A model generated the notes under the pieces. It saw only the letters and a program-made list of their open reading frames with translations. It made no database searches and was not told the DNA's origin. 46,357 nt of DNA from a bacterium (lineage in GTDB: Bacteria; Patescibacteriota; Saccharimonadia; Saccharimonadales; Saccharimonadaceae): positions 1-46,357 of the forward strand of contig JAUIGH010000001.1 of NCBI GenBank assembly GCA_030429935.1. The letters are read 5' to 3'. A program made the position numbers and the translations under genes. This document shows positions 1,585-31,323 of this stretch, in pieces; position 1 is the stretch's first letter; each line of letters opens with the position of its first letter.

Positions 1585-1629
1585 TCATCTTGCGCTCGCT
1601 GAGCGCTGGCGCTAGACTAAATACAGATT

Positions 1630-6262: not shown

Positions 6263-6270
6263 ACGACCAG

Positions 6271-13250: not shown

Positions 13251-13325
13251 TGGGGTGTCGCCAAGTGGTAAGGCACTGGATTTTGGTTCCAGCATTCGGG
13301 GGTTCGAATCCCTCCACCCCAGCCA
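13251..13325 (+). tRNA. tRNA-Gln (anticodon UUG), CCA encoded
   Basis: TGGGGTG-TC-GCCAAGTGGTAAGGC-A-CTGGA-TTTTGGT-TCCAG-CATTC-GGGGG-TTCGAAT-CCCTC-CACCCCA-G-CCA. Close to the canonical bacterial tRNA-Gln. Confidence 0.9.
13304..13320 (+). repeat. left copy of the 17-nt direct repeat (attL-like, inside tRNA-Gln)
   Basis: tcgaatccctccacccc, identical to 30149-30165. Confidence 0.8.
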
Positions 13326-13384
13326 AGATGTACACCAAAGGTGGCCCGAATGGGTCTAGGGTTTTGATATACATCCCGGTTCAG

Positions 13385-13413
13385 AAAAAGTGGCCAAGCA
13401 AGGCCACTTTTTG
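13385..13413. terminator. bidirectional rho-independent terminator
   Basis: AAAAA-GTGGCC-aagcaa-GGCCAC-TTTTT, between tRNA-Gln and the convergent GNAT gene. Confidence 0.6.
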
Positions 13414-13459
13414 GTTTGAAGCTCTTATGATTTGTACGAACAGGCAATCGGACGTATAG

Positions 13460-13979
13460 CTACAGGCTTATTTTAATATTTTTCCATACAAGGCCATTGT
13501 CGTCGATGTACGGCACGCCGTCCTCTTTGAAGCCTAGGGACTTGTTAAGGTTGATGACGGGCGTGTTATTGGCCAAGTGGCGAGAATAGATGGTTTTCAA
13601 CTCGAAGGTGTTCTTTATGTAATTAACAGCTGCTTGCATAGCAGACTTCCCGATACCCTTGCCGCGATAGTCAGGGTTACCGATCATGATATGAATACTT
13701 GGCGGCTGTACATGGTGATTCTCGAATAGCTCAATCCAGACAAGACCGATCGTCTTTTGATCGATAATAATCATGCGAGCCCTCTTGCTCTAGGCTGATA
13801 AACTCACGCATAATAGCCATTTCACCTTCAAGCGTGGATGGCTCAATTTCACTATTGGCGTTACCCATGCTTAAGAGTGTGGCGTGGCCTTCTGGCCTTT
13901 GAAACCAGCTTAGTGCAAAGAGCGCATCTCTATCTGGGTCGGGTGATAACAGTTGAATGCTCGAATCGTTAGATTGCAT
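13460..13979 (-). pseudogene. GNAT N-acetyltransferase split by one frameshift
   Basis: Two overlapping ORFs (13731-13979 and 13460-13774) join into one GNAT-like protein if 1 nt is removed near 13775-13785. The acetyl-CoA motif is IGNPDYRGKGIGKSAM. Confidence 0.55.
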
Positions 13980-13988
13980 AATGACTCC

Positions 13989-15200
13989 TCATTCATTTAG
14001 TGTAGAGTGTATGGCTTCTTCGAGTAGGTTAAGCCCCTCGATTAGCACCTCTTCACTAATAGTTAATGCTGGTATGAATTTAACAACCTCATCTTTTGCT
14101 CCTACTGTTTCAATGACGAGTTTTCTTCGAAACAAAGCTTTGTAATGGTTTTTGCCATCTCCGCTTCCGGAAAACGAGTCCACACGAGAGGCCGCGTCCT
14201 CGGACCGTCGTGAAGGTTTCGAGATAAAGATCTTTTATTCTCTCTAGTCTTTCGCGAACAATTTTCTCTTTTCATTTCACTTCCGCTGAAAGCTCGTCCG
14301 ACCGCCAGAACTTTTCAAGTGCCTTGAGGCCGGCGACAATGCAAGATTATTACCCCGAAATGTGCCGTTAGGCTGCCCTGGCTTCCATATATCTAACTCT
14401 GGTTTAAGGAGTACGAGCGCCATAGGTAGGCCAAAGCCGGAAATTGACTTTGATAAGACGACATCTGGGTGTGTTTCGGCAAACTCAAAGCTAAAGAAAT
14501 CTCCAGTTCGTCCGCACCCTGCCTGGACATCGTCGACAATAAGAAGAATGCCCCTCCTAGCTGTTAAGTCGCGAAGGCGCTTTATCCACTCGGCGCTAGC
14601 GACATTTACACCCCCTTCACCTTGAAAAAGTTCAACAATGACAACTGCTGGCAGATCGACGCCGCTACTTGGGTCATCAAGAACTTTTTCTAAATATGCA
14701 ATATTGTCTAATCCATCAAAGTAGTTGTCATAAGGGGGAAAGACGGTGTCACTTAAAGGGGTACTAGAGGCGTTCCGGAACCATGAGCTGGACGTTGCTG
14801 CGAGCGAGCCTGAAATGAGTGACTAAATGCAATGACATTATGTAGTCCTGTTGCAAGACGAGCGATTTCCAGGGCTGCTTCAACTGCATTAGTGCCAGTG
14901 GGGCCAGTAAATTGAAGTTTATAGTCAAGAACGCGAAGTGTGAGGATGGTTGTCGTAAACTCCTTGATGAACGTAGCCTTAACCCTAGTGGCCATATCAA
15001 GTCCATGGATAATGCCATTACTCTGGAGATACTCGATCAGTGCCCGGACCATCGTTGGTTCGTTGTGTCCGTAATTGAGTGCGCCAGCGCCACGAAGAAA
15101 TCGATATAGCGACGCCGCTCGTCATCCCATATATAGGATCCTTCTGCCTAAAAGAGCGAAACTGAGAAAGAGCGAACACATCTTATTACATTTGATTCGT
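13989..15200 (-). pseudogene. class-III aminotransferase (diaminobutyrate--2-oxoglutarate transaminase-like), multiply frameshifted
   Basis: Minus-strand fragments in different frames: IDFF/GAGALNYGHNEPTMVRALIEYL, LQFTGPTGTNAVEAALEIAR, LLIVDDVQAGCGRTGDFFSFEFAETHPDVVLSKSISGFGLPMA..GQPNGTFRGNN, VKFIPALTISEEVLIEGLNLLEEAI. At least four frameshifts and in-frame stops. Confidence 0.75.
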
Positions 15201-15276
15201 ACTGATCGATTACGTCTGACGCTGTATTCGTGCTGTAATTTTACCAGAAATCAGCTTGTACGGTTATAATGTAGGT

Positions 15277-16707
15277 ATGAACTACGATTATGTCATTGTT
15301 GGTGGCGGTGCAATTGGGCTGGCTATAGCTTATCGACTCAAGAAATCCCACGAAGAGCGATCAGTACTAGTGCTTAATAGTAATGAAACTGGCACGGCAA
15401 GTCTTGCTTCGGGTGCTATGCTTGGCTGTTTTGGTGAAGTTACAAAATACACACTGAAAAACGAAGCTGGCAAAAAGAAATTTGACCTGATGTACGCTGC
15501 TCATAAGCAATGGGCGTCATGGCGCGAGGAAGTCGAAGCTTCAGCGCAACAATCTATCAGGCATACGCCTGGAAGCTATGTAATTCTTAACACCCACGGC
15601 GGATCCCTTGACGATGAAAACTTTGATGCAATGGTGCAAGCTTTGGTTAACTACGAAGAGCCTTATGAGTATGTTGCGCCGAAGGATATCCCGGGCCTCC
15701 ATCCAAATAATCTAGCCCGTCCACTTCGTGCAATTTATCTTCCAAATGAAGGTTCAATTGAAAGTAATCAATATGTTGAAGTGTTGAGAGTTGCCTGCCG
15801 GAATATTGGCATTACTCTCACAGACATTCACTCTCTTGGGGCTATTGAGCGCCGTGGTAATGATTATGTCGTGACTATTGACGATGAAACAAATATAACA
15901 ACGTCATCGGTGATTATTGCTACGGGCGCTTATACGAGCAGTGTCTTAGCAAAGGTGACGCCTACTGTCGGTGCAATGCCGGTGCTTGCTGGTAATGGCG
16001 TAGCTGCAGTAACAAAGCGTCAACTTGGTGAAGGCTTCAAGGCGACAGTGCGTACCGCGAATCGCGCAGGCTCCTGTGGGCTTCACATCGTACCAATGAG
16101 TGATGGGTGTGAATATATCGGTGCTACTAACGTTCTCTACAGCGAGCCCGAGGCGCGTATGACCGTTGGTCTCTCCCACTTCTTGTCCCAGTGTGCAATC
16201 GAGCAGCTTGACCTCAATATATATCACTCCTTCGTACAAACATGGCGCACAGGTAATCGTCCTGTTTCTTTGGACACCTTGCCACTGATTGGAAAAATAG
16301 ACGATCTGGGACTGTATGTTGCAACAGGGACGTATCGCGATGGACTTCACTGCTCACCTGTTATTGCGGATGCGCTAGTGGCCGTGATCGATGAGAGGGA
16401 AGCTCCATTGATCGAAAGCTTTAACCCGCAGCGAACTTTTACAGAGTTGATGTCGAAAGAAGTTTCTATGGACGAGTATGCTATGCAGGCAGTGTCCGGT
16501 GCCTATGAGAACTGGTATCGACCCGCATACTACATGAATGATGATGAAGTCTATAAGAGCGCTCGTCAGAAAGCCGCTGATATATACGACCAACTTCAGA
16601 TAAATGTTGGCCTTCATCCAGATATTCTTCTGCTTCTCTCTTCCGACGACTCAGCTATCGAGCGAGTAAGAGAGTATCTTCTGATTAACGAGGTGCAGGC
16701 GACATGA
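15277..16707 (+). CDS. FAD-dependent oxidoreductase (DAO / glycine-oxidase-like family)
   Basis: N-terminal Rossmann motif DYVIVGGGAIGLAIAYRL. 476 aa from ATG 15277. Confidence 0.75.
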   Translation: MNYDYVIVGGGAIGLAIAYRLKKSHEERSVLVLNSNETGTASLASGAMLGCFGEVTKYTLKNEAGKKKFDLMYAAHKQWASWREEVEASAQQSIRHTPGSYVILNTHGGSLDDENFDAMVQALVNYEEPYEYVAPKDIPGLHPNNLARPLRAIYLPNEGSIESNQYVEVLRVACRNIGITLTDIHSLGAIERRGNDYVVTIDDETNITTSSVIIATGAYTSSVLAKVTPTVGAMPVLAGNGVAAVTKRQLGEGFKATVRTANRAGSCGLHIVPMSDGCEYIGATNVLYSEPEARMTVGLSHFLSQCAIEQLDLNIYHSFVQTWRTGNRPVSLDTLPLIGKIDDLGLYVATGTYRDGLHCSPVIADALVAVIDEREAPLIESFNPQRTFTELMSKEVSMDEYAMQAVSGAYENWYRPAYYMNDDEVYKSARQKAADIYDQLQINVGLHPDILLLLSSDDSAIERVREYLLINEVQAT

Positions 16708-16973
16708 CGTCGGGTCGAGACCTTATTGACGCCGAGGGTCGTGTGACTCGCTGGCCTAAAAAATCCACTGAGCGCGAGCAGGTGCTTGGCTACCTGGCTT
16801 CAAAGTTCCAAAGCGACCGCACATACACAGAAATTGAAGTAAATGATATTTTGCGCCAGTGGCATACATATGAAGATTGGTCGTCTCTAAGACGCGATCT
16901 TATCGGTTACGGCTACGCAACTCGGGATAGAAATGGGCTCAAGTATCAATTTAAAGGACAGGGAGACGAATAG
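16704..16973 (+). CDS. DUF2087-like small protein
   Basis: RVTRWPKKSTEREQVLGYLASKF..YTEIEVNDIL...LRRDLIGYGY matches my memory of the DUF2087 pattern. The start overlaps the upstream stop (ATGA). Confidence 0.6.
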   Translation: MTSGRDLIDAEGRVTRWPKKSTEREQVLGYLASKFQSDRTYTEIEVNDILRQWHTYEDWSSLRRDLIGYGYATRDRNGLKYQFKGQGDE

Positions 16974-17479
16974 TGGAACAGATTCGTGACTACAGGCCGG
17001 ATACGGATGAAGCTGAAGTCTCAACACTCTTGAAAGAGTTTCAAGAACATCTCGCCACTGTCGATCAAGAAGATGAAATCCGAAGCTTTGTTTCTGATGC
17101 GGACGCACGCCGCTACCTAGATAAGATGGTCAATGATAGTACGGAAATGAATGGTAAGTTTTTGGTGCTCGAGCTGGATGGAAAGCTCGTTGGTTTCATT
17201 CAGGGGATCATTGACCCACGCAATGACCAAAGTGATGTCATGTACCAAACTACACACAATGCACAGATTGAGGGTTGGATCGGACTTGTCTATGTACGCC
17301 CCGAATATCGTGGACGTCGGTTTGGTATCAAGCTGATTGAGGCGATTAAGCAGCACTTTATAGCCAATGGCTGTACTACGCTCCGCCTCTTGGTTGCTCG
17401 CGATAATACTAATACGGTCAACTTCTATCACAAATATGGATTTACTGACCGCGACGTAGAAATGGCTATGCCGTTATAG
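16973..17479 (+). CDS. GNAT family N-acetyltransferase
   Basis: VYVRPEYRGRRFGIKLIEAI...NFYHKYGF. The GTG start overlaps the upstream TAG by 1 nt. Confidence 0.8.
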   Translation: MEQIRDYRPDTDEAEVSTLLKEFQEHLATVDQEDEIRSFVSDADARRYLDKMVNDSTEMNGKFLVLELDGKLVGFIQGIIDPRNDQSDVMYQTTHNAQIEGWIGLVYVRPEYRGRRFGIKLIEAIKQHFIANGCTTLRLLVARDNTNTVNFYHKYGFTDRDVEMAMPL

Positions 17480-17482
17480 ATC

Positions 17483-20400
17483 ATGACTAAAGCAGGCCGA
17501 CCACTTTATGCGTTTGTAGATGATTGTGCAGTACAGTGGCCTGAGATGCCTGCGCTTAGGGATGAACAGTATGTATATACCTATGGTGAGCTGAGTAAGC
17601 TTTCAAGTTACTTTGCTCATCGTATTTGTGCGACAGGTGACGTTGCGGGAAAGCACATCGGCCTGCTGTACGATCGCTCGGCCCAAAGTATTATCTTGTT
17701 GTTGGCTATTATGAAAGCCGGGGGTGTGTATGTTCCTCTCAACCGGGCATTGCCAAAAGATCGTCTTATGGAAATGGTGAGTGGAGCGGATATCACCCTT
17801 GTCGTCACTCCGGATGAGCCTTCTATTGCTATGGACCAGCCCACTATTGCTCTTGCGCCGATTGATCCTTTGCATGTCGCTATTCAGCCTCCGCTGCTTG
17901 CTAGTGAGGCACTAGCCTATGCAATTTTCACCTCTGGCTCAACGGGAATGCCGAAGCTTGCTCTGTTGAGGCACGAGGCTGTTGTGCATGTTATGACAGC
18001 GTTAGCTGAACGATATTATATCGCACGCAATGATCGTATGCTACAGTTCGCTAATCTCTCATTTGACGGGTCAATATCAGAAATCTTTGGTGCTTTTATC
18101 GCTGGCGCCGAGCTTATTATTCCGGGTGAGCAAACGACGCAAAGTCTTACGCGGCTGGCTGCCTATTTTGATAGCGAGGCTGTGAGTGTTGCTGTTTTGC
18201 CACCCTCGCTTCTTGCACACCTTCCGCTTAGCTTTCGGTCCTTAAAGACTATCGTTGTTGCGGGCGAAGCGTGCTCCTCTTCTCTTGCAAGAACGGTCAC
18301 AAAGCAAGTGCCGCATTTTATTAATGCATATGGTCCGACGGAATGTTCAATTTGTGTTTCAACCTATGAGGTGCCAAAAGATTTCGACGGAAGCATCATT
18401 CCAATCGGCGAGCCGCTCCCCGGCGTGAATACGGTCATACTGGATGAAAAAGGCCAGCCCGTCGCAAATGGAGTGACCGGTGAGCTGTATGTGGGCGGCC
18501 CTAGTCTATTTGATGGGTACTATAATGACTCGGCAAAAACATCTGCTGCGCTCATTCAGCGCGGGGCTGAGGGCCTATTTTATAAAACAGGTGACTATGT
18601 GACTCTTGAGGGTAAAATCCTTACGTACGTATCTCGATCCGATGATTATATAAAACTCCACGGCCTTCGTATCTCTCCCCTTGAGATTGAGGAAGCGATT
18701 CGGCACTCGGACGATTCTATTCGTGGTGCAGCTGTGGTATTGGTTGAGGATGGAGACGACAATAGTCTTGCTGCTTTCTATGAGAGCGCGCACGAGCTAC
18801 CTGTTGATGATATTCTTCAGTCGATAAAGCGCCAATTGCCGGCATATGCGGTGCCGCATAAGATTGTGCATCTTGCACACCTTCCGCTGACTGACAACAA
18901 AAAGATTAACCGTCGTGCACTTGCTGCACAGGTGCGGCCAAGTCTCGAACCGGCGCCAGCTTCGGATTCCTCTCTACGCGCGCTTTGGCAAACTACTCTA
19001 CGGGTGTCCATTGACGATGCAACTGATTTCTTCTTGGCGGGTGGCGACTCGCTGAAGGCGATGCGGTTAATTGCTGAAGTTGATCGGCAGTATGGAACAA
19101 GCTTAAACCTTGTGGATCTCTATAACCACTCCACCTTTGGTGATTTTTCTGCTCACATTGAAGCCTCTTCACCTTCGGCGTCTTTACGATCATACAACCC
19201 ACAGGACCTAACTCCATACGAGGTAATGATGTGGAGCGCGTCTGCACACTCGGGTAACGCAGGGGCGTACACGCTTGTGGAGGTTGTAGAGCCATATTTT
19301 GATGTAGACCCTATGCGACTTAAGCAAGCTATTGCGGCACTGTCTGATAACTTTTCTGCTGCATCGTATCGCTACATCCTTGGTGAGAATGGGCTTGAGA
19401 AACAACTGGCTTCAGGAATTAGTTTTGTTAATCATGGCGATCTCACTAGGGCGGAAGGTGACGCACTCGCCACTTCTCTTGCAAACGCTGGCATAGACCT
19501 TGCTGCCGATGCGCTCATTACAGTTCATTTTGCGCTTATTGACGCGTCCCCTACTATTATCATTCATGCTCATCATATTGTACTTAGTGCAAGTATTCTG
19601 AAGCTCTTTGTGGATGAGCTCTGGCAACGCTATGCTGGCTTGGCCGTAGTGCAGAGGGTCGAGGAAGCGCCTCGAGAATTCACCGAAGACGATTTAGCGT
19701 TTTGGAAAAAAGCTTACGACTCCACCGCTGATTATGTGCAATTGCCATGGAGCGGTATTCGGCAGCCAAAACCAAAGAACGACGGAGCTACCTTTGTAAC
19801 GACAATCGATGTATCTATGAATCGGCTAGTGTCAGAGCTTGGTATTACAAAATTTGTCTTTTACCGAAGTGTCTTCGCTCTTCTCCTCCATAGGCTTACT
19901 GGCCAACCTTCTTTTTACATTGGTAGCTCAGTTGATGTGCGTCATGGTGACTTCTTAGGGGCTCAGCCGGCAATGCTTAATTCACTACCTATTCTCTCTG
20001 TTCTTGAAAGTGAGCAGACGTTTAAGAGTTTTATCCTCGAGACACAGCAGGCTGTGCGGGCCGCCCTTAGTCATTGCCATGTACCCCTTCATGACATTAT
20101 GAAGCTTCACATATTTGAGCAAGATCGTCTCGTCGGTCCTTTTAACGTCTTGTTTGATTACGTCGAGAAGCCTAACTCTTACGAAATGCCCGGGCTTGGC
20201 ACTATTGATAGCAAGCAGTGGTTTAATTCCAGCGCTAAGCACGACCTGACTCTTACAGTTGTTGAATCGTCGGGCACTGAGTTGCAGTGGGAGTACGATA
20301 CTGACCTTCTGGATGAACGAACTGTGCAGCAATTTGCAACTATCTTCACCCACCTCTGTCATACGGTTCTGCACGACTTGCACGCTCCGATCGCTTCCCT

Positions 20401-23400: not shown

Positions 23401-23428
23401 GAAAAGAATCGGAGCAAACTGTGGATAG
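17483..23428 (+). CDS. non-ribosomal peptide synthetase, two modules: A-T-C-A-T-E
   Basis: A1 motifs: AYAIFTSGSTGMPK, FDGSISE, NAYGPTE, GELYVGG, YKTGD, SRSDDYIKLHGLRISPLEIE. T1 is GGDSL (Ser523, nt 19049-19051). C-like motif HHIVLSA (aa 697-703). A2 motifs: LAYVIFTSGSTGTPKG, FDISVWQ, NAYGPAEASDD, GEIYIAG, YKTGD, GRSDFQVKIRGFRIELEEIE, NSGKIDR. T2 is GGDSI (Ser1538). The E-like domain has LPTPIQ and NHLVMDVVSW. Confidence 0.9.
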   Translation: MTKAGRPLYAFVDDCAVQWPEMPALRDEQYVYTYGELSKLSSYFAHRICATGDVAGKHIGLLYDRSAQSIILLLAIMKAGGVYVPLNRALPKDRLMEMVSGADITLVVTPDEPSIAMDQPTIALAPIDPLHVAIQPPLLASEALAYAIFTSGSTGMPKLALLRHEAVVHVMTALAERYYIARNDRMLQFANLSFDGSISEIFGAFIAGAELIIPGEQTTQSLTRLAAYFDSEAVSVAVLPPSLLAHLPLSFRSLKTIVVAGEACSSSLARTVTKQVPHFINAYGPTECSICVSTYEVPKDFDGSIIPIGEPLPGVNTVILDEKGQPVANGVTGELYVGGPSLFDGYYNDSAKTSAALIQRGAEGLFYKTGDYVTLEGKILTYVSRSDDYIKLHGLRISPLEIEEAIRHSDDSIRGAAVVLVEDGDDNSLAAFYESAHELPVDDILQSIKRQLPAYAVPHKIVHLAHLPLTDNKKINRRALAAQVRPSLEPAPASDSSLRALWQTTLRVSIDDATDFFLAGGDSLKAMRLIAEVDRQYGTSLNLVDLYNHSTFGDFSAHIEASSPSASLRSYNPQDLTPYEVMMWSASAHSGNAGAYTLVEVVEPYFDVDPMRLKQAIAALSDNFSAASYRYILGENGLEKQLASGISFVNHGDLTRAEGDALATSLANAGIDLAADALITVHFALIDASPTIIIHAHHIVLSASILKLFVDELWQRYAGLAVVQRVEEAPREFTEDDLAFWKKAYDSTADYVQLPWSGIRQPKPKNDGATFVTTIDVSMNRLVSELGITKFVFYRSVFALLLHRLTGQPSFYIGSSVDVRHGDFLGAQPAMLNSLPILSVLESEQTFKSFILETQQAVRAALSHCHVPLHDIMKLHIFEQDRLVGPFNVLFDYVEKPNSYEMPGLGTIDSKQWFNSSAKHDLTLTVVESSGTELQWEYDTDLLDERTVQQFATIFTHLCHTVLHDLHAPIASLPLLDEGERVAMLSIGRGETRARSASSFYERFSDMVRRQPDAIAVRHQGHSTTYQDLHYLVEHFSAILVEQELSSDAPVGVFMERSPEMVAIIVALWRLGYAYVPIETTLPLQRIRSIIETTRMSLMVTKVTHRAKLPVDNMRIIDETHQPKTIYTPETTVSPNTLAYVIFTSGSTGTPKGVMIEHAGMMNHAEGMIEYLALDNASTIAQTASHSFDISVWQLTTILIAGGTIAIYSKDEQSNLDSFTTRLFEDRVTLLELVPSYINILLEYLEDTHNQQKLKNIDALISTGENISWPIVEGWLQNMPGSRLMNAYGPAEASDDTNLFTFKDLSAMQRRGLPVGASLANVNAYVLDEALNPQPIGVQGEIYIAGIAVGRGYINDPERTRKSFISNPHTGERMYKTGDLGYWSSEGQLVYLGRSDFQVKIRGFRIELEEIEAHIIRYPHITSVAVMVVDRNNSKQLHAYVTADIDIDSSVVLSHLRDHLPDYMVPSSIVQLSALPLNNSGKIDRHFLANKERLRFKEVEEIAGPSVEEAAVMAVWREVFGLDYMTVDDDYYALGGDSITSFRVYAKLSAKGYQLTLQDILAFPILKDFARTMTSESVDVRQVPRIDKALLPTPIQSRLLAAGSKEVMAQNISLKGHWERERLNTAIQASARNQGVFYLMFDADGQRFGLEPQFKEAYAFVESSVAEDDAFDRLNRELTRSVVFAYGAEGDDTTVRALYLSANHLVMDVVSWNIFIAAVNDAYEATSRVDNDIDYTFGSWAQAMQDADDPSSEILDYWRGVLLQTVDATRALKQLFVYDIPDRQLFTMDAPLPLVQFTDASVYLAVLQALAQVLDIAQSGILIETHGRYGEVLGIDLSKTVGWFTHLLPLTGATSRDIESILRVDNMTKVAYGLATQRDLLNRELEPLVVVNYLGKSSNMSGYAMRHSAQERPIGKELLELSIYEDGSNLCIKVVLYATPKEDEFVQKLLTAITRQLSAGEANLEKSRLDAILKRIGANCG

Positions 23429-26270
23429 TCCAATTACTGACATTGTGCCTGCAACTCCCGTACAGCATGGGTTGCTCTATGTTGAGCGTTCGTATGCAAA
23501 AGGCTCGCTCTATCATGAGCAGTACATTGCTAAGTTGGCGGGCCCCCTGGACCTGGGCCGTCTAGAAATTGCATGGCAAAAAACCGTTGCTGCACACACT
23601 ATTTTGCGAACTATTTTTGACTGGGATGGACAAAATGAACCGATGCAAATTGTACTGCGGCATTATGCTGCGCCGTTTGTTGTTATGGCTGATCCGCTGG
23701 AGGAGAATGAACGTACGGCATTTGTAGAGCGGGACGCTCAGGATTCATTTCAATTTGATACAACTCCACCCCATCGACTCACTCTCATGAAGCTCGATGA
23801 TCAGACGCACTGGCTAGTTTTTACCTACCACCATCTATTACTAGATGGCTCCTCAGTCTCGGCGTTATTTGATTACTTGGCATGGCAGTATAATCAGCCG
23901 TCCGAAGTGCGAGAAATTAATGACTACGGCGCATACTCTCGTTGGATACAGAGTTATAGGCAACAGGAAAATTCTGTTGATGCGTGGCATAGCTATGCCG
24001 AGGGTATTAGTCTCCCAGCTTCGCTGGTGCAAGAATATAGCAATGATCAGACTCGCGAGCATTATCAGTATATTGATCGCGAGGCGGTAGATCGGCTGGT
24101 CGCTGCGGCTCGTGCGCATCACCTCACGCTTAACAGTATTTGTCAGGTTATGTGGGCATATACATTTGCGCTGAGTCGTGAGCAGCCACAGGTGTGCGCT
24201 GGTTCACCGACAATGGTCAAGCCACTTGATAGCAGCCTGGATTCTGTAGTGGGTCTTTGTATTAATACATTGCCTTATATACTCTCGTTCGATCGCGAGC
24301 AATCTCTGGTTGATATTGCTGTGCGGCATCAACAGAACTGGGGAGGGCTTATCGAGCACTCTCGAATCGGGCTCGCTGAGATCAAGAAAGCTATTGGATA
24401 TCATCACTATGGCGATCCGTTCGACACCATACTAACGTACACGGACGCTCGTGACAGAATACTCCCTAGGCTTGATGGTGTAGATTGGCGGGTCCTGTCG
24501 CATAATGAAGTAACTCAATATCCCCTATCGCTGGACGTTGTTTATGATGTTCATTCAATTGAATTAAAAGCAACCTACAGAGATGCTCACTATAATGCAC
24601 CGACCATTTCACGTCTTGTGCAGTCTTTTGCTGATAATCTTAGCCTTTTCATTGAACACCCCGATACCATTCCTCACCTTCGGTCTTATACTGATGTAGA
24701 TGACGAGACTGTTGCCCCTCAGGGAAGCGGGCGTGAGGCACTGACCGAGAAAATTGCACAGATATGGACGGATGTATTCGGCGTTGAAGTTGGATATGAT
24801 TCAAACTTTTTCGACCTTGGTGGTGACTCAATTAGCTCTCTTCGTATTGTCAGTAAACTCCTTGAGGCGGGCGTTACGGCTTCGATGCGCGATGTCTTCG
24901 ATTCACCGACCCCGGAGCTGCTTGCTCGAGTGGTGTTATCGACCGCAATAGATGACCCTGTTACGCACATGGATCTGCCTGCAAGCGTTGAGGAGAAGGC
25001 TCGTCAGTTATACGGAAGCAATATTAGTGCAGTTGTCCGCGCTTCGAGTGTCCAGCAAGGCATTATCCGTCGTCCATCATCCAAGCAGAATTTATATCAT
25101 GACCAATCAACGTTTACCTACAAAGGCCGCTTGGACCCTGAACTATTTGAAAAAGCGTGGAACATTGCTGCACATAAAAATGACGCGATGCGCATGCGAT
25201 ATTTTTCGAAGGACGATGTGTGGTATGTGTGTGCGTTAAAAGACAGCGCCATATCTATGCGGTATTTCGACCTCAGGGATACACCACGACAGAGCGAGGC
25301 TATACAGCGCGCTATTGAAGACGACTTGGCGACGCCTTTTAATCTTCAGCGCGACCCACTTATTAGACTAAGGCTATATCGAACTGGCGATGAGACACAC
25401 GTTCTCTTTTTGAGTTTCCATATTCTTGTTACCGACGGTTGGAGCTTTGCTTTCATGATGGACGATGTTTTCACTGCCTACGAACACCTTATTGAGGAGC
25501 GATCGTTCGATCTTCCTAGTCGCCGCCTGACATATGTTGACTATCTCCACTCGCTTACGGTGAGCGATACTATTTCCGGTCGCCAGCATTGGTCTCAATA
25601 TCTCCATGATGCTGCGGGAGCTAAGGGTGTGTCGATCTCAAATTTTTCAAACCTTGACGTGGTTTTTGCTCATCTTGACGGAGACGAGACGGATGTAATT
25701 CAGCGGTTTGCAAGTGCAAAGAAGCTATCACTCAACTCGGTCGTGCAGGCTGCTTGGGCAACAATTAACGCACGACAATCGGAACCGGTTATATTTGGTG
25801 CAACAACGTCCGCTCGTTTGCTTCATGGTGTCAATTACGACGATACTGTTGGTCTTTTCTTTAATGACATCCCTATTATTGCTCATGTCGAGGGTCGGAG
25901 TATTGAGCAGCTGGCAAATATAATTCAGCGTGATTTTCAGACGAACCTAAAGTATAGCTACGTATCTTCTTATGATATTGCGGAGATGGTGGGTCGGGAT
26001 CCCGAAGAAGCGCCATATGATAGTCTTATTGTTTTCGAAAACTACCCTAAGATGCAGGAAGATAGCCTGAAAGAATCCCGCCGTGGTGGAGTGATGAATA
26101 CGGACTATTGGCGACGGGACATGGCCGACATTCCAATGACGTTGTATGTAGAGGTGCGCAATGGCGTGACAGACATTAAACTTTCTTATAACAATACCGT
26201 CGTTTCTCGTGATGTTGCTCAGGGGCTTGTCGATGAGTTTATGCGGACGTTAAAGGTATGTACATTGTAG
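23421..26270 (+). CDS. NRPS protein with C-T-C architecture (no adenylation domain)
   Basis: The GTG start overlaps the upstream stop. C2 has PATPVQHGLLY and a canonical HHLLLDG (aa 137-143). T3 is LGGDSIS (Ser470). C3 has SFHILVTDGWS (aa 665-675). Confidence 0.85.
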   Translation: MDSPITDIVPATPVQHGLLYVERSYAKGSLYHEQYIAKLAGPLDLGRLEIAWQKTVAAHTILRTIFDWDGQNEPMQIVLRHYAAPFVVMADPLEENERTAFVERDAQDSFQFDTTPPHRLTLMKLDDQTHWLVFTYHHLLLDGSSVSALFDYLAWQYNQPSEVREINDYGAYSRWIQSYRQQENSVDAWHSYAEGISLPASLVQEYSNDQTREHYQYIDREAVDRLVAAARAHHLTLNSICQVMWAYTFALSREQPQVCAGSPTMVKPLDSSLDSVVGLCINTLPYILSFDREQSLVDIAVRHQQNWGGLIEHSRIGLAEIKKAIGYHHYGDPFDTILTYTDARDRILPRLDGVDWRVLSHNEVTQYPLSLDVVYDVHSIELKATYRDAHYNAPTISRLVQSFADNLSLFIEHPDTIPHLRSYTDVDDETVAPQGSGREALTEKIAQIWTDVFGVEVGYDSNFFDLGGDSISSLRIVSKLLEAGVTASMRDVFDSPTPELLARVVLSTAIDDPVTHMDLPASVEEKARQLYGSNISAVVRASSVQQGIIRRPSSKQNLYHDQSTFTYKGRLDPELFEKAWNIAAHKNDAMRMRYFSKDDVWYVCALKDSAISMRYFDLRDTPRQSEAIQRAIEDDLATPFNLQRDPLIRLRLYRTGDETHVLFLSFHILVTDGWSFAFMMDDVFTAYEHLIEERSFDLPSRRLTYVDYLHSLTVSDTISGRQHWSQYLHDAAGAKGVSISNFSNLDVVFAHLDGDETDVIQRFASAKKLSLNSVVQAAWATINARQSEPVIFGATTSARLLHGVNYDDTVGLFFNDIPIIAHVEGRSIEQLANIIQRDFQTNLKYSYVSSYDIAEMVGRDPEEAPYDSLIVFENYPKMQEDSLKESRRGGVMNTDYWRRDMADIPMTLYVEVRNGVTDIKLSYNNTVVSRDVAQGLVDEFMRTLKVCTL

Positions 26271-26968
26271 CGCTTCTTGATATTAGGCTAGTAAATGATG
26301 GGATTAAGACAAAGGCCGTGTCCCTCTTGTCGCCTGAGGAAATGGAGCGTTATGGGAGATTCCGTCATGCGTCCGATGCTAATCTATTTCTTTTTGGTCG
26401 GTTTCTTGCGCGCTGTCTTGTTTCCCGTGTCGCCACGAGGCGACCTGAAGATGTTGCAATCCTGGTTGCCGGTACCGCAACTAAGCCCTATGAGTCGCAG
26501 CGGCTGATAGAGTTTAGCATTTCACACAGTGGAACCTTTGTGGCAGTTGCTGTCTCTCAGCGACCGGTTGGTATCGACGCACAGGTGCACGACCAGACAC
26601 GGACTGATGTGTTTGATAGATTCTTTACTGCTGAAGAAAAAGGCTACGCCCACCAGTCGTTGAAGAATTTTTATAGATTATGGACGTCTGTGGAGTCGCT
26701 AGCAAAGATTACAGAGCTCGGCTTCAATGAAGCGCTCATGAATCGTACCCCCCGGTTCAAGAGTGATTTGAGTGGCTACACTTTCAATCAGACAAGCTAT
26801 TACATAAGTACGCTCGTTCAAACAGAGGATCTGACATTATCTGTCGTTACAGCTGAAGACGTGCTCTTTCGGAAGTACCCGTCAGCGAGAGAGGGACTCC
26901 TTGCTGGGATCGATACTGATGAGCTTTCACTTGAAGTTTACTCTGGGAGTGTAGACTCTGACGTGTAG
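26258..26968 (+). CDS. 4'-phosphopantetheinyl transferase, Sfp type
   Basis: FSISHSGTFVAVAV...VGIDAQ and WTSVESLAKITELG resemble the Sfp-family core motifs. The start overlaps the upstream gene by 13 nt. Confidence 0.75.
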   Translation: MYIVALLDIRLVNDGIKTKAVSLLSPEEMERYGRFRHASDANLFLFGRFLARCLVSRVATRRPEDVAILVAGTATKPYESQRLIEFSISHSGTFVAVAVSQRPVGIDAQVHDQTRTDVFDRFFTAEEKGYAHQSLKNFYRLWTSVESLAKITELGFNEALMNRTPRFKSDLSGYTFNQTSYYISTLVQTEDLTLSVVTAEDVLFRKYPSAREGLLAGIDTDELSLEVYSGSVDSDV

Positions 26969-27975
26969 ACTTCGGCGTCACGTATATTGGCGCCGGTTTC
27001 AAATCCTCTTACAAATGAGGCGAATGCACCTGGTGTGACATCGTGGTTGTATCCACCGCCCATAATAACGAGAGTGCGCATGTTCATGTGACCAAGGCGG
27101 TCTCCAATTTCGGCATATTCCTGATCATCCAAATGGGTTAGTGGTGGCAGGCCTGGCCACTCGCGAGTATGGCCGTCAAACCCTGCTTCGATAATAAGGT
27201 AGTCGGCACCAAATGACTTAATCTTTTCTTGGGCACGTGCTAATAATTCGAAGTATTCCTCGTTTGAGATGCCAATAGGAAATGGAAGATTAAGGATGGT
27301 CCCCTCTCCTTCGCCAATGCCAGTCTCGTCTGCATGGCCAGTGTGTGGGAAGATCTCATTGGGATCGGCATGAAGGGATACGTAAAGGACCTCTGATTCA
27401 TCTTGAAAGATGTCCTGGATGCCATCACCGTGATGAACATCAAAATCCAGGATTGCAACTCGTTTGCCTGCTTCTTTGAATGCCTCGGCGGCAACGGCGG
27501 CATTATTGAAGAAACAAAAGCCATGATAGAACTCTCGCCCTGCGTGATGTCCGGGTGGTCGAGAGACGGCAATTGTAAGGCGCTTCTCTTCATCGTTCAG
27601 CAGTGCGTCGGCCGCAGCTAGAGATGCTTCGGCCGAAAAGAGGGCTTGCTCAAATGTGCCTGGATAAATTGCCGAAGCATTTGTCTCAGTGTCGCGGTCA
27701 TACGGCGACTTTAATGGGTTGTTATCTGTTGCTTGTAGACCAGTCTCATATATGGCTTGTATCATTACGGGTGAATGAAGTTTTGAGACAATGGCATAAG
27801 TTTCCTTGTGGACTTCAGGGACTACTACCCACTCTGTAGGAATGGTGTCGGAGAGGAGTTCATTTATGATGCCGTAAAGCCGCTCTGGAACATCCCATGG
27901 CTGTCCCTCGTCATCAATCCATCCCTTATGCTTGTAATGCTCGGAGTTATGGTACACGTGTCGTTCGGCTGGCAT
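26938..27975 (-). CDS. histone-deacetylase-family amidohydrolase (AcuC / acetylpolyamine amidohydrolase-like)
   Basis: RPPGHHAGREFYHGFCFFNNAAV, DFDVHHGDGIQDIF, SLHADP..FPHTGH. Start chosen at ATG 27975. The 3' end overlaps the PPTase 3' end by 31 nt. Confidence 0.8.
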   Translation of the reverse strand: MPAERHVYHNSEHYKHKGWIDDEGQPWDVPERLYGIINELLSDTIPTEWVVVPEVHKETYAIVSKLHSPVMIQAIYETGLQATDNNPLKSPYDRDTETNASAIYPGTFEQALFSAEASLAAADALLNDEEKRLTIAVSRPPGHHAGREFYHGFCFFNNAAVAAEAFKEAGKRVAILDFDVHHGDGIQDIFQDESEVLYVSLHADPNEIFPHTGHADETGIGEGEGTILNLPFPIGISNEEYFELLARAQEKIKSFGADYLIIEAGFDGHTREWPGLPPLTHLDDQEYAEIGDRLGHMNMRTLVIMGGGYNHDVTPGAFASFVRGFETGANIRDAEVYTSESTLPE

Positions 27976-28080
27976 AGTAGATTTTACTTTACAGTAATAA
28001 TGTAAACGTATCAATACAGCCACAATTTACACCAAAAGTGAACCAAATGGGTCAAAAGGGTTCATGTAAATCATGGATAG

Positions 28081-28108
28081 AAAAACGACCGATTTCGGTC
28101 GTTTTTTT
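28081..28108. terminator. bidirectional rho-independent terminator
   Basis: AAAAA-CGACC-gatttc-GGTCG-TTTTTTT, downstream of the recombinase-like gene. Confidence 0.55.
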
Positions 28109-28162
28109 GTTTCGATTCTCGCAAGCCGCTCACCCCAATAAGGAAGTGAGTCTAGGACTTTA

Positions 28163-29140
28163 TTAAACTCGTATCGATTCTCGATTATGGAGTGCAAGCT
28201 TTAAGTTAAGATTTCGTATGAGTTGTGTTTCCTCGAAGAGCGTTCCGTCCTGAACGACGTATTTTATGTAGGCACCAATTGCATCCTCTTCTCTATAAGA
28301 ATCACTTGTCGCTCTGATGATCTTTGTGAACTTGTCTATGGCAATACGTAGGTCTGGCTCAAGGGCCTCAATGTCTGTGATGAGATTATTGCAATGCTTG
28401 ATAAGCCCGTTTACAATATCTCGCTCGCGTCCAAACGGTTCTTTGCAGTCATAGTCAACCTGTCTTGAGCAATGATAGTACATAAAGACACCTACTGTGC
28501 CATTCTTGTACTTTTTCTTGCGTTCTTCGCAGACGATCGTTGAGCCGCAGCTGTAGCAGGTCATGAAGCGCTTATACGGAAATTCTTTTGCACCCCATTT
28601 GGATTTCATAGGCACTTTTAGTTGTTCTTGAACTATGTCAAACAAGTCCTTTGTAATTAGTGGCTCGTGACTGCCTTCGTACCATTGGCCACTGTCTTTG
28701 GGAAATTCAAATTTACCGTAGTAGTATGGATTTTTTAGTATTTTGTAAATCATACTCAGTGAGATGTGTTTTTCTTTTCGTGTCGTTACTGTATTATCTT
28801 CGAGCCATGACCGAATATGTCTTCCGCTCTTGCCGTTGGCTGACATTTCGAACATCTGCCTGATATATGGCGCTCGCAGCTCGTCAATAATGACATCTCG
28901 ACCATTACCACTTCCTCGCGTGAAGTAGCCGAGCGGTAGTATGCATAGCCGCCACCCCATTTCGCATTTGGCTCGGATGCCACGCTTTACGTTGATCGCC
29001 CGGTTATCGTTTTCAAGCTTTTCAATGTAGTCGTTAACCGCATGGGCTGGCTGTGATTTAACATGTTTATCTTTTTCCTGCAGGTTTTTACGCAAAGACC
29101 TAAGACTATCAATATAAGATGATAGCTGGTTCTTGCTCAT
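28163..29140 (-). CDS. large-serine-recombinase C-terminal portion (recombinase domain + zinc ribbon); catalytic N-terminal domain absent
   Basis: LPLGYF...IDELRAPYIRQMFEM..GKSGRHIRSWLEDN...IYKILKNPYYYGKF and CYSCGS...YYHCSRQ fit the recombinase and zinc-ribbon domains. No YxRVSxxxQ-type serine catalytic domain is found in the ORF or in the 260 nt upstream. Confidence 0.65.
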   Translation of the reverse strand: MSKNQLSSYIDSLRSLRKNLQEKDKHVKSQPAHAVNDYIEKLENDNRAINVKRGIRAKCEMGWRLCILPLGYFTRGSGNGRDVIIDELRAPYIRQMFEMSANGKSGRHIRSWLEDNTVTTRKEKHISLSMIYKILKNPYYYGKFEFPKDSGQWYEGSHEPLITKDLFDIVQEQLKVPMKSKWGAKEFPYKRFMTCYSCGSTIVCEERKKKYKNGTVGVFMYYHCSRQVDYDCKEPFGRERDIVNGLIKHCNNLITDIEALEPDLRIAIDKFTKIIRATSDSYREEDAIGAYIKYVVQDGTLFEETQLIRNLNLKLALHNRESIRV

Positions 29141-29380
29141 CGCAGTAAACTCTTCTAGTGGAGTAACATCAATGGCTAATTCTCTTTGCAGTCATGTCAC
29201 TTCAACGCGGACACTTTGTGCTATTTCTTTGAGCTTATCTTCCTTTTGCCACGGTAATTCAGGGAGGTTATAGTCTGCCATGTACCGTAGGTATTCCGAC
29301 CTATTGTCAAATGATTTTGGTTTATAGAATTCTTTGAGGTAAATATTAAGGGTGATCAAGGTACAATAAAAATGTCCTTA

Positions 29381-29410
29381 TAAAGAGAAGAGGCGCACCG
29401 AAGTGCGCCA
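29381..29410 (-). terminator. rho-independent terminator of the high-GC gene
   Basis: The minus strand reads GGCGCAC-ttcg-GTGCGCC followed by TCTTCTCTTT, 24 nt after the stop. Confidence 0.5.
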
Positions 29411-29433
29411 ATTCCCGAACTGCTGCTGTGGAT

Positions 29434-29856
29434 CTACACGGTCACCTTGGGGCGGTAGCCCATGATGGCGACCATGCCCATGCCGGCGAGCTCGCGACCA
29501 TGCGGGTCGTCGTACTCCATGCCGAGCATAGTGCGCGGGTCCAGGATGTCCCACCAGCCCATGATCTTGCCGAAGGCGAAGAGCATGAACGCGCGGCGCT
29601 GGTCCCCCAGGGCTCCACCGGCGACGAGGTAGTTGATCTCCTCGCCGAGTGGCGGAACTGGCTGACCCCAGCTATCGCTGGGCCACTCCTTGAGGAGTTC
29701 GATCATCTCGGCGGCGTGCTCGTGGACCTTGGCGGTCTTCAGGGCGAGCGCCATGACGAAAAAGTTGAACACCTCGCTGCCCTCGACGGGCCGCTGGTCC
29801 TCATCCACCTCGCCGAGCGAGTCGACGAGAATGGCGTTGATTCGTGCGATATCCAT
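29434..29856 (-). CDS. hypothetical protein encoded by a high-GC, high-GC3 gene
   Basis: 140-aa minus-strand ORF with an AAAGGAAG RBS and a terminator. Third codon positions are almost all G/C, unlike the surrounding island. No family recognised. Confidence 0.6.
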   Translation of the reverse strand: MDIARINAILVDSLGEVDEDQRPVEGSEVFNFFVMALALKTAKVHEHAAEMIELLKEWPSDSWGQPVPPLGEEINYLVAGGALGDQRRAFMLFAFGKIMGWWDILDPRTMLGMEYDDPHGRELAGMGMVAIMGYRPKVTV

Positions 29857-29979
29857 CGCGGGTACTTCCTTTCAGTCGGGAACAATTATACTATATCATA
29901 TACATCAAATATAATCAATAGCATAGAGTCTACATCTCGTGTCTCATTTCAGGTATCAGATCCGTATGCTTAGCCATGG

Positions 29980-30013
29980 AAAATTCCGTAGTTCTACTGA
30001 GCTACGGAATTTT
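29980..30013. repeat. 12-bp inverted repeat / orphan terminator-like hairpin
   Basis: AAAATTCCGTAG-ttctactgag-CTACGGAATTTT. No adjacent gene ends here. Confidence 0.35.
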
Positions 30014-30148
30014 TCTTTGCTCGATGTAGTGGATTCGAACTCCCGAATGCGAAGCATGAGGTGTGAAGACTGCCAGCGGCAGTCTGCAAGGCGATGTCAC
30101 ACGTGAACTATGTTCAAGAGACTGATTCGCGGGGTCGCGGAACGTGAC

Positions 30149-30165
30149 TCGAATCCCTCCACCCC
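30149..30165 (+). repeat. right copy of the 17-nt direct repeat (attR-like tRNA-Gln 3' remnant)
   Basis: tcgaatccctccacccc followed by gcca. The preceding bases (gtgac) cannot form the T stem, so this is a remnant and not a tRNA. Confidence 0.8.
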
Positions 30166-30226
30166 GCCAATGTGCTTAAGTTTGAGCACTTCTCTGAACT
30201 TCTTTTTATTGTGCTAGTATTTAAAC

Positions 30227-30661
30227 ATGGAAAAACAAGTAAAAGTTGGTGTAGGCATTTTTGTTTTTAAAGACGGCAAGTTTTTACTTCTGAAAAGGAA
30301 AGGCTCTCACGGAGGTGACACATGGTCATTGCCCGGTGGCCATCTTGAATTTGGAGAGTCGTTTGCTGAAGTAGGTGCACGTGAGCTGCTAGAGGAAACC
30401 GGACTTGTAGCAGGCAATATCCAATTTGGAGCTGTCTTAAATAATCATTTCATAGATGTCGATAAGCACTATGTTTCAGTATGGCTGACCAGTGATTGGA
30501 TGGAGGGTGAGGAGCACATTACTGAACCGGATAAGTGCCATGCGGTTGGTTGGTTTGATTTTGAATCACTCCCAGAGCCGTTATTCTTACCGTGGCAACA
30601 ATTTTTAGATTCAGATTTTCTGGAAGCTGTTGAGGGCAGGCTTAGACAAACGGCTGTTTAA
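30227..30661 (+). CDS. Nudix hydrolase
   Basis: Nudix box GGHLEFGESFAEVGARELLEETGL. Confidence 0.8.
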   Translation: MEKQVKVGVGIFVFKDGKFLLLKRKGSHGGDTWSLPGGHLEFGESFAEVGARELLEETGLVAGNIQFGAVLNNHFIDVDKHYVSVWLTSDWMEGEEHITEPDKCHAVGWFDFESLPEPLFLPWQQFLDSDFLEAVEGRLRQTAV

Positions 30662-30891
30662 TGCTTTATGAGATATATTCCCTGCCGTTAGAAACGCATC
30701 CAAAAGCCCCAGCCATGAAATTAGATTGAGTGGTTACTCGATCTTTTTTCAAATAAGCTGAGGAGCGAAGCGCTATCCCTCCACTATCTCTCAACTCTAA
30801 CTATCGACCGGAAGACTCACGCAACCCCGTACTTTGTAGACGTTATATAACCAAAGATCGAGAGCAGCATATCTACGGTATAATCTGTGTC

Positions 30892-31254
30892 ATGGGAATC
30901 GACTACACGCTGTTCGTGAGCGCGCTACTGTATTTCTTCGTCGTGAAGATCTTTGTATCTTCGAAACTCAGCATAGTATCGGCGAGTCTGATCGTCGTTC
31001 TGGGCTCGTTCGCTTTTTCGCTCCTCACCCGCTGGATTATCCTCAGTTCATAAGGCGTATCCGCTTTTGAGCTCATCAGTGTCTCAGCGATACTCACTGT
31101 GATACTTCAGCTCATGGCTGCTGTCTTCGTGTTTTATAAATTACAAGAAACCGAAGAGACGTATATGGCTTGGATGGGTTGGAGTATTTTGGGATTTGTG
31201 ACCTTATTTTTCATCATCCCATTCGTATCGAACAAATTTGTAGCATTGTTCTAG
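30892..31254 (+). pseudogene. small hydrophobic ORF interrupted by one in-frame TAA (or two separate mini-ORFs)
   Basis: MGIDYTLFVSALLYFFVVKIF...RWIILSS-TAA(31051-31053)-GVSAFELISVSAILTVILQLMAAVFVFYKL...FVALF, all in one frame. Confidence 0.3.
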
Positions 31255-31323
31255 ATTGACGTTAACGTCGAATAATTGCGGAACGCGCGTCGAGTGTAGT
31301 CGTGCTCATGCTACAATCACCAC

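Follow-up and report, generated by a model that had tools for sequence, protein, structure and literature searches.

A composite island with an NRPS cluster at the 3′ end of tRNA-Gln in a Saccharibacteria chromosome, probably built by serine integrases

Introduction

Genomic islands and prophage remnants linked to tRNA genes, such as P4-like elements and pathogenicity islands, have an intact tRNA gene and a copy of its 3′ end at their borders, a deviant composition, accessory cargo, a decayed integrase and a locus that varies. The same features are found in the stretch of DNA described here, a whole 46,357-base contig (the window; all positions are those of the window) that by its sequence represents part of the chromosome of a Candidatus Saccharibacteria (TM7) bacterium and that carries a nonribosomal peptide synthetase (NRPS) cluster and a serine-recombinase remnant downstream of a tRNA-Gln gene. 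The locus differs from the classical islands in that its sole recombinase is of the large serine type, in that at least three modules are stacked with internal remnants resembling attachment (att) sites, and in that the host belongs to the Saccharibacteria of the candidate phyla radiation (CPR). We suggest that the locus is probably a tandem stack of acquired modules that arose by repeated serine-integrase-mediated integration at the 3′ end of tRNA-Gln, then decayed and is now immobile.

Elements and phages with large serine recombinases, among them phiC31, Bxb1, TP901-1 and phiRv1, offer a second comparison. Serine integrases act on attP and attB sites of about 40-50 bp, in which imperfect inverted half-sites surround a 2-nt crossover and the common core is short. 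A tRNA gene is an unusual target for these enzymes (PMC10654092). The present locus and its relatives share with such elements the Resolvase-Recombinase-zinc-ribbon architecture (in the intact orthologues), an integrase beside an att site, a half-site-like motif of about 25-28 nt and, in one viral locus (L036), terminases; they differ in that the target is a tRNA gene, the recombinase copy in the window is catalytically dead, and the crossover dinucleotide and attP are candidates only. SCCmec (CcrAB) has the 3′ end of rlmH as its insertion site, with flanking direct repeats of about 15 nt; like our locus, it sits at the 3′ end of a conserved gene, has a direct repeat that is rather long and can be stacked in tandem. 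Accretion of cis-mobilizable elements (CIMEs) and integrative and conjugative elements (ICEs) at one att site is known from ICESt1 and ICESt3 of Streptococcus thermophilus; there, as here, tandem elements share one attachment site with att remnants between them, and some lack a recombinase of their own, but the elements described here have no conjugation genes and are phage-like or pure cargo.

The cargo resembles NRPS clusters on mobile islands in being a self-contained block (NRPS, C-T-C protein, phosphopantetheinyl transferase, oxidoreductase, acetyltransferases, aminotransferase and deacetylase) that moves together, and differs from them in belonging to a phylum-restricted family. Biosynthetic clusters of any kind are seldom described from CPR bacteria (PMC7298704), and cultured Saccharibacteria had neither NRPS nor polyketide synthases (PKS) (PMC8694215). 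In the part of the literature that was covered, we found no description of this NRPS cluster family or of serine integrases that target tRNA-Gln in Saccharibacteria. The tRNA-linked architecture is itself not new; what is unusual is the cargo and the host, and the interest of the locus lies in a mobile NRPS cluster specific to Saccharibacteria and in a serine integrase linked to a tRNA gene.

Results

The 3′ end of tRNA-Gln recurs 16.8 kb downstream

The tRNA gene and the two copies of its 3′ end are as follows.

13251-13325, + strand: intact tRNA-Gln(UUG) with an encoded CCA (ARAGORN; Rfam RF00005 over 13251-13322, 63.6 bits)
13304-13325, + strand: R, the 3′ part of the tRNA (T loop through CCA), holding the 17-nt repeat (13304-13320) and the terminal octamer cccagcca (13318-13325)
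30149-30169, + strand: R3, tRNA-Gln 3′ remnant, the exact 17-mer followed by gcca, with one A missing

The 17-mer TCGAATCCCTCCACCCC reaches from the T loop of the tRNA to the penultimate base of its acceptor stem. Even with up to two mismatches tolerated, the window contains exactly two copies of it (13304-13320 and 30149-30165, each on the + strand), and two matches were obtained in none of 100 shuffles. Because the first copy continues with agcca and the second with gcca, the repeat is really one of 22 nt with a 1-nt deletion. No tRNA or known RNA was found at the second repeat by ARAGORN, at the Rfam gathering score or at an Rfam E ≤ 1 over 27900-30400, and the bases 5′ of the second 17-mer (cgtgac) cannot pair with ccctc, so that no T stem can form. 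Judged by these sequence features, the second copy is an att-type remnant of a tRNA 3′ end, and tRNA-Gln(UUG) would be the integration target and the attB side of attL. A first-pass annotation of this DNA had called the tRNA intact, had noted the exact recurrence of the 17 nt followed by gcca with a one-nt offset, and had read the second copy as an attL/attR-type remnant lacking a T stem; ARAGORN and Rfam agree on the first of these points, the repeat count and the shuffles bear out the second, and the negative RNA searches together with the unpaired cgtgac uphold the third.

Foreign DNA extends beyond the second repeat

A composition check set beforehand gave a profile that is not flat, with a G+C of 0.47 in the island against 0.55 outside it (0.546 and 0.541 in the two flanks, 0.478 over 13326-28017 and 0.472 over 28018-30148) and a tetranucleotide correlation with the backbone of 0.43-0.63 inside the island against 0.86-0.92 outside; between the left and right flanks the correlation is 0.92. 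The anomalous composition runs from 13.3 to about 31.3 kb, that is, about 1.2 kb beyond the second repeat. The first-pass annotation had proposed a single island of about 16.8 kb bounded by the two 17-mers. Insertion of foreign DNA at the 3′ end of tRNA-Gln was right in kind, but the DNA between the repeats is not one element: it is divided by an internal junction with a second arm (28018-28114), behind which the remnant of a separate serine-integrase element follows, and the composition remains foreign as far as about 31.3 kb. The listed cargo (NRPS, acetyltransferases and a recombinase remnant) was correct in content, except that only one of the two acetyltransferases is intact, that at 13460-13979 being frameshifted; the recombinase is indeed a remnant, its catalytic domain being gone and only the equivalent of residues 131-415 left, and the bidirectional terminator reported at the start of the island is present as an A5-hairpin-T5 at 13385-13412. 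The locus has a tRNA at one border with a 3′ direct repeat at the other, a deviant composition and variation among relatives, as islands do, and has no functional site-specific recombinase, the sole one being without a Resolvase domain. Since this recombinase is truncated, the island is a remnant, or fossil, and not an active element.

The stretch 3′ of tRNA-Gln varies among relatives

A glycosyltransferase (GT) gene lies just 5′ of tRNA-Gln, and its nearest relatives are in Saccharibacteria metagenome-assembled genomes (MAGs). Both flanks of the window are syntenic with a single 808-kb contig of one relative (L008; 75% protein identity). Common to the two on the left is the order Dus, UvrD/AddA-type helicase, polysaccharide deacetylase, GT and tRNA-Gln, and on the right AI-2E transporter, CysS, DHH phosphoesterase, RecR, YbaB, PMT-family glycosyltransferase and DnaB. 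The collinearity of the flanks on one contig implies that the two flanks of the window belong together. The distance from tRNA-Gln to AI-2E is 2.5 kb in L008, 9 kb with other genes in L015 and 21.7 kb in the window, and the island genes are not at this locus in L008 or L015, a comparison of gene content in which both relatives are distant. The GT-tRNA-Gln pairing also occurs in relatives L002, L007, L008, L009 and L015. Backbone relatives are generally remote: the nearest are about 68% identical to the window in DNA, the best match to a backbone protein among 5.8 billion proteins is 79% identical, and an exact look-up with a window protein gave no match. Several public contigs from relatives end at or within tens of bases of tRNA-Gln, the pattern expected from strain-level variation there. 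On these comparisons, the stretch 3′ of tRNA-Gln appears to be a variable hotspot for site-specific integration.

The upstream side of tRNA-Gln is also not wholly fixed among relatives, as shown by L007, in which a helix-turn-helix (HTH)-Nudix gene and an HD-domain gene (11273-12578) lie between GT and tRNA-Gln. A second tRNA called by ARAGORN in the window, at 6270-6342 on the - strand, is a tRNA-Gly with the anticodon ACC (loop CUACCAG); an A34 anticodon is unusual in bacterial tRNA-Gly. At the syntenic position in L009, ARAGORN gives an 89-nt tRNA-Ser(ACU) with a like D arm and a longer middle part, which is possibly an intron or a miscall.

The NRPS cluster is a separate module of 14.7 kb

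The genes behind the left end of the island are the following (Pfam, unless stated otherwise).

13460-13979, - strand: GNAT acetyltransferase pseudogene, with an 11-nt deletion relative to a 176-aa orthologue, a Pfam match on the C-terminal half only and an indel at 13780 relative to L021
13989-15231 (start approximate), - strand: class-III aminotransferase pseudogene, disrupted by six indels (frameshifts or deletions, one of them a 13-nt deletion), with short open reading frames (ORFs) only and a faint Aminotran_3 trace
15256-16707, + strand: FAD-dependent oxidoreductase (DAO)
16704-16973, + strand: DUF2087 protein
16973-17479, + strand: second, intact GNAT
17483-23428, + strand: NRPS, 1981 aa, with the domain order adenylation-thiolation-condensation-adenylation-thiolation-condensation (A-T-C-A-T-C)
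23421-26270, + strand: C-T-C protein, 949 aa
26258-26968, + strand: 4′-phosphopantetheinyl transferase (PPTase)
26938-28023, - strand: HDAC-type deacetylase, the right end of the retained cluster

The cluster thus holds two AMP-binding domains, PP-binding and Condensation domains, a C-T-C protein and a 4′-PPTase, as expected of an NRPS locus, while its gene set is incomplete, with two pseudogenes and a PrnB-like neighbour missing. The 176-aa GNAT is intact in L021-L026 and a 420-aa aminotransferase in L021, L023, L026 and L029, and the order DAO-DUF2087-GNAT is kept in all orthologous clusters. The aminotransferase is lacking from the Microsaccharimonas version of the cluster (L027), and this gene may be dispensable or repeatedly lost.

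Same-length orthologues of the NRPS are 97, 88, 74, 70, 59, 58, 50 and 48% identical to the window protein, against at most 33% in other phyla. Source names are attached to three of the eight (Ca. Microsaccharimonas, Ca. Saccharibacteria and Dongiaceae). On this evidence the cluster family is specific to Saccharibacteria, the few named orthologues being almost all from that group. The cluster with the 88%-identical NRPS in a Dongiaceae-labelled MAG (L024, NCBI DATMTU010000124.1; 18 kb) is 100% identical to positions 2424-20433 of L023, which has a G+C of 0.45-0.48 and Saccharibacteria-type units of tRNA-Gln end, element E and arm A (both described below); the label, which would place it in the Alphaproteobacteria, is likely due to mis-binning.

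Comparison with other metagenomes defines the unit. Orthologous clusters on other contigs stand in different surroundings. Window positions 13318-28019 are 96.25% identical in DNA to L021 (ERR2709782; 25.8 kb) and equally so to L022 (DRR836188), 84.5% to L023 (SRR35255168; 74.7 kb; Logan), L024 and L025, and 73.5% to L026, and on both sides the flanks of L021 are unlike anything in the window. By blastn, homology starts at 13318 of the window against L021 and at 13308 against L022. It stops at 28016-28019 of the window against L021, L023 and L026, of which L021 and L023 go on with a PrnB-like gene that is absent from the window; the common block ends in an intergenic position upstream of the deacetylase gene, 2.1 kb short of the second 17-mer. 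L021 and L022 come from different sequencing runs and are 99.95% identical to each other over 15,053 nt from cccagcca on, and the 22 nt upstream of cccagcca in L022 are unrelated to L021. Arm A and the cluster are therefore found in four left contexts (the tRNA in the window, L021, L022 and a unit E-R′ in L023), all joined at the octamer of the tRNA 3′ end. These alignments show the NRPS module to be 13326-28017 only (14.7 kb).

The cluster has a G+C of 0.48 in the window, L021, L023 and L026; the flanks in those three other loci are at 0.45-0.49 and the window backbone is at 0.55. A cluster whose NRPS is 97% identical to its best orthologue, against at most 79% for backbone proteins, and whose G+C fits the flanks of the other loci points to a recent arrival from a Saccharibacteria lineage of lower G+C. 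The cluster is also degenerating in the window: all eight indels relative to L021, including the 11- and 13-nt deletions, fall within 13780-15256 and ruin the 176-aa GNAT and the aminotransferase, and the remaining 12.7 kb are free of indels. On its right, the loss of the PrnB-like gene indicates that this copy was cut off and joined to 'cca' and the second arm. The full biosynthetic unit may be larger than the copy in the window. In L023 a PrnB-like gene lies beyond the deacetylase at 18269-19318, and in L021 one lies at 19369-20755, seemingly fragmented; between arm A and GNAT, L023 in addition has (331-3658) a Peptidase_M15/CntK_N protein, a Trp-repressor-like protein and two unknowns.

A repeated arm precedes both the NRPS module and a serine-recombinase remnant

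The arms and the genes of the second module are as follows.

13326-13420, + strand: A1, element-side arm of about 95 nt, an imperfect palindrome of about 55 nt followed by the bidirectional terminator (13385-13412)
28018-28114, + strand: internal junction and A2, a diverged second arm; 'agcca', which with the c at 28017 gives cagcca, and then A2
28163-29140, - strand: large serine recombinase remnant, with a Pfam Recombinase domain only; integrase of phrog_95
29434-29856, - strand: gene for a 140-aa protein, 64% G+C, foreign to the composition of both island and backbone

The first 28 nt or so of A1 form a conserved motif, agatgtacaccaaaggtggcccgaatgg, inside the imperfect palindrome of about 55 nt, and the motif of A1 and A2 (AGAYNGNACACYAARG) stands directly 3′ of tRNA-Gln ends. 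A2 is 68% identical to A1 (nhmmer E=2.8e-23), with compensatory changes in both hairpins; fold z-scores in DNA are -2.9 to -4.5 for A1 and -4.4 for A2. The motif has the length and position of an element-side attL half-site, and we regard it as a candidate P′ half-site for a serine integrase; the break at cccagcca would agree with a crossover right at the tRNA end.

The stop codon of the recombinase fragment is 50 nt from A2. In tblastn, 28166-29020 corresponds to residues 131-415 of intact 415-aa orthologues, with 85% identity to the best (P0241), and the same query found no trace in the window of residues 1-130, the catalytic Resolvase domain. Intact homologues of about 420 aa are abundant, the few named ones being from Saccharibacteria or Patescibacteria, and the orthologues P0241-P0360 combine PF00239 and PF07508, with or without PF13408. 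Of the Resolvase-Recombinase-zinc-ribbon arrangement, the window protein has the Recombinase domain alone.

The neighbouring 140-aa gene lies within an island remnant of 41-47% G+C. A search at E ≤ 1e-3 places it in a protein family of 221 clusters, the full-length homologues being 135-145 aa long and sharing the invariant residues G96, W102, P107 and G127; it gave no Pfam, PHROG or PDB profile match.

Serine integrases stand beside tRNA-Gln in other loci

Intact orthologues of this recombinase are found at the same target elsewhere. In L031 (SRR31729303), tRNA-Gln(CUG) is followed by the A motif, a small ORF of a phage protein family and then, in convergent orientation, an intact orthologue of the integrase (77% identity); Saccharibacteria backbone genes stand on the other side of the tRNA. 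L036 (IMG/VR 3300025000_003383, viral collection) has a 49%-identical orthologue 125 nt from tRNA-Gln(UUG), behind an A motif and followed by genes for the large and small terminase and a DNA methyltransferase, which identify it as a prophage. In both, a motif of about 25-28 nt follows the tRNA end as in A1 and A2, with the sequence agatgtacaccaaaggtgacccgaatgg and, in L036, the form agactggacactaagcgaccggaag. The pattern for the start of the motif has six matches in all sequences compared, and all six are directly 3′ of tRNA-Gln ends (in the window, L021, L022, L023, L031 and L036). An integrase beside an att site at a reproducible target is hence seen in L031 and L036, and in the window as cagcca-A2-integrase. 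Neither the 216-aa ORF of L031 nor the ORFs of L032 have a match in the window, and scans of viral contigs for E and the A motif gave no match. A serine integrase 80 nt from tRNA-Gln in L007 was considered as a copy of the element left in the window; it belongs to a different subfamily with 25% identity only, and we regard it as an independent serine integrase at tRNA-Gln.

The right-hand end contains a conserved element and further tRNA-end-like sequences

Beyond the recombinase remnant, the following features are recognized.

29957-30016, + strand: r2, degenerate tRNA-end-like sequence tcagatccgtatgcttagcca with a terminator hairpin; 13/22 identical to R by eye and ending in agcca
30021-30148, + strand: E, a conserved structured element of about 130 nt directly 5′ of R3; about 70% identical to L023 46-172
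30227-30661, + strand: Nudix hydrolase gene (Pfam), G+C 0.434
30706-30715 and 30723-30750, + strand: r4, 'gccccagcca' and a terminator (sequence reading and terminator call)

E is shared with L023, where it is joined to R′, a 3′ end of the tRNA-Gln(CUG) type; E, the tRNA remnant and A form one uninterrupted block there at 46-285. The consensus fold of the two copies has three conserved hairpins and a closing helix, and in 8 of 37 pairs both bases have changed with pairing preserved. E matches no Rfam family; weak Rfam matches to small RNAs near the second repeat and E (E 0.1-0.3) were treated as chance. We considered a tmRNA- or tRNA-like RNA and rejected it, as the window and L023 do not share the acceptor-type pairing sought by eye and, in these two sequences, only the internal hairpins covary. 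E could be the arm of a recombination site or a small RNA.

r2 resembles the arrangement 'agcca|tagaaaaa-hairpin-ttttt' that follows tRNA-Gln in L008 and stands at the start of L023 (sequence reading and L023 alignment). The 9-mer CCCAGCCA occurs within 13-35.5 kb only at 13318 and 30708, against a chance expectation of about 0.08, which is suggestive of r4 as a further tRNA-end remnant. Ungapped tRNA-end matches of at least 15/23 occur 1-11 times (typically 4-6) per shuffled window; a copy at 30693 (15/23) is accordingly not significant and r2 (13/22) lies below the scan threshold, and both rest on context only. No symmetric P half-site (reverse complement of the A motif) was seen by eye beside R3, r2 or r4, and promoter and terminator scans gave counts no higher than shuffles. 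The Nudix segment and r4 may be an older layer of the island with the displaced native tRNA end. Over 30170-31320 the G+C is 0.43-0.46, and two small membrane-protein ORFs lie at 30892-31053 and 31099-31254.

Discussion

Altogether, we favour a model in which three modules were stacked on one tRNA gene. Module I (13326-28017) would be the NRPS cluster with A1 as its left end, next to the tRNA; Module II (28018-29977) what is left of a phage-type serine-recombinase element with its own arm A2; and Module III (29978-30169, in summary about 170 nt) a terminator and E, ending in the 17-nt tRNA remnant and followed by the Nudix segment and r4. In this model, a serine integrase recombines an element-borne site (E, a tRNA-like core and A) with the 3′ end of tRNA-Gln, the crossover taking place at or just after the terminal cccagcca. 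The intact tRNA followed by arm A would then be attL, and the other end of the element joined to a tRNA-3′-like sequence would be attR. Repeated integrations would have pushed older elements downstream, with the prophage-type element extending from A2 to E-R3 arriving first (or the terminator-E-R3 end belonging to an even older unit) and the A1-NRPS element later. Deletions would subsequently have removed the right part of the NRPS element from the PrnB-like gene onwards together with the att site between the elements, the N-terminus of the integrase and most phage genes. The NRPS module has an arm A and no integrase, and it was presumably mobilized in trans.

Several observations weigh against this model. 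An attL/attR identity of 17 nt, or of 22 nt with one gap, is characteristic of tyrosine integrases and long for serine integrases, the common cores of which are usually short (PMC10654092). The junction at 28018 keeps only 'cagcca' of the tRNA end, which obliges a tandem model to invoke an extra deletion. In L023 the units stand in the opposite order to the window, (tRNA end)-terminator-E-R′-A-cluster; a reversed order of stacking, or entry at a secondary tRNA-like site, would account for this, though not uniquely. Ten of the 12 other orthologues of the integrase on viral contigs have no tRNA-Gln nearby, the right ends of both the NRPS element and the intact integrase element lie beyond the contig ends in all loci compared, and the window holds no functional recombinase. 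A scan of genome and metagenome contigs for the GT gene returned distant relatives only (at most 74% protein identity), and no empty site was found in a close (>90% identical) relative; the absence of the island elsewhere is seen at the level of gene content, in relatives about 68% identical in DNA.

The strongest rival is a classical tyrosine-integrase island of the P4-like or ICE type, the attP of which carried the last 22 nt or so of tRNA-Gln and the integrase gene of which was later deleted, leaving the serine remnant as a passenger. The exact repeat, which is confirmed, has the length and the position (T loop to CCA) that are textbook for tyrosine integrases, and tRNA genes are mostly targets of these enzymes (16/23 tyrosine-integrase sites, none reported for serine integrases; PMC10654092). 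We nevertheless consider this origin unlikely. No island ORF has a tyrosine recombinase (Phage_integrase) domain, and the unassigned stretches (29021-29433, 29857-30148 and 30662-31323, each <700 nt) are too short for a tyrosine recombinase gene. Serine integrases, by contrast, stand repeatedly beside tRNA-Gln behind the A motif, and L021 and L022 differ right upstream of cccagcca, which places the breakpoint at the 3′ end and not in the T loop as a crossover in the identity segment predicts.

Alternatively, nothing was inserted: the region would be ancestral and lost in the sampled relatives, with the second 17-mer the relic of a decayed tandem tRNA-Gln or of a local duplication. Differential loss draws on the remoteness of the relatives, at about 68% DNA identity, for which gene content alone is compatible with loss, and on the age of the NRPS family within Saccharibacteria, with its series of 48-97% identity; it is very improbable given the sharp break in composition at both ends, the cluster that is 96% identical to a copy in an unrelated context against at most 79% for backbone proteins, the conserved non-tRNA element E in place of a decayed tRNA body 5′ of the remnant, and the presence of the integrase remnant and the arm repeats. 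Least credible of all is an assembly chimera, in which DNA of at least two populations was joined at short tRNA-derived repeats without linkage of the island to the backbone, for although R, A1/A2 and R3 lie exactly at the module borders and public contigs do break at tRNA-Gln (L002, L009, L022, L023 and P0005 contigs), both flanks are on one contig in a relative so that two compensating misjoins are needed, the tRNA-A junction recurs with a real tRNA-Gln in L031 and L036 and the E-R junction in L023, and the repeats (17-22 nt; 95 nt at 68%) are too short or too diverged to be collapsed with the usual assembly k-mers.

Taking the serine-integrase stack and the comparisons together, we can tentatively extend the model, as a possibility that falls short of an even chance: phage-derived serine integrases for which the 3′ end of tRNA-Gln is attB, and E, the core and A make up the site on the element, may move, whether in cis or in trans, an NRPS cluster confined to the phylum from one lineage of Saccharibacteria to another, the product being a metabolite of an episymbiont and E being functional, as part of the recombination site or as a small RNA, and not debris. 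If so, the metabolite might be a polyamine- or amino-acid-derived peptide that is used against or with the host bacteria.

A serine integrase family tied to a tRNA target with a recognizable half-site motif also provides a candidate attB/attP pair. Serine integrases with defined sites are useful tools for genome engineering, and to our knowledge none is available for Saccharibacteria. For the biology of these organisms, which have minimal genomes, the NRPS cluster family has members from two or more named lineages (Ca. Microsaccharimonas and Ca. Saccharibacteria), and the 96% identity of one copy between organisms of different G+C implies a recent move and suggests that a diffusible metabolite is under selection in an obligate episymbiont. 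The locus illustrates how the stacking of elements at a single tRNA gene, and their decay, would shape the flexible genome of an organism with less than 1 Mb of DNA.

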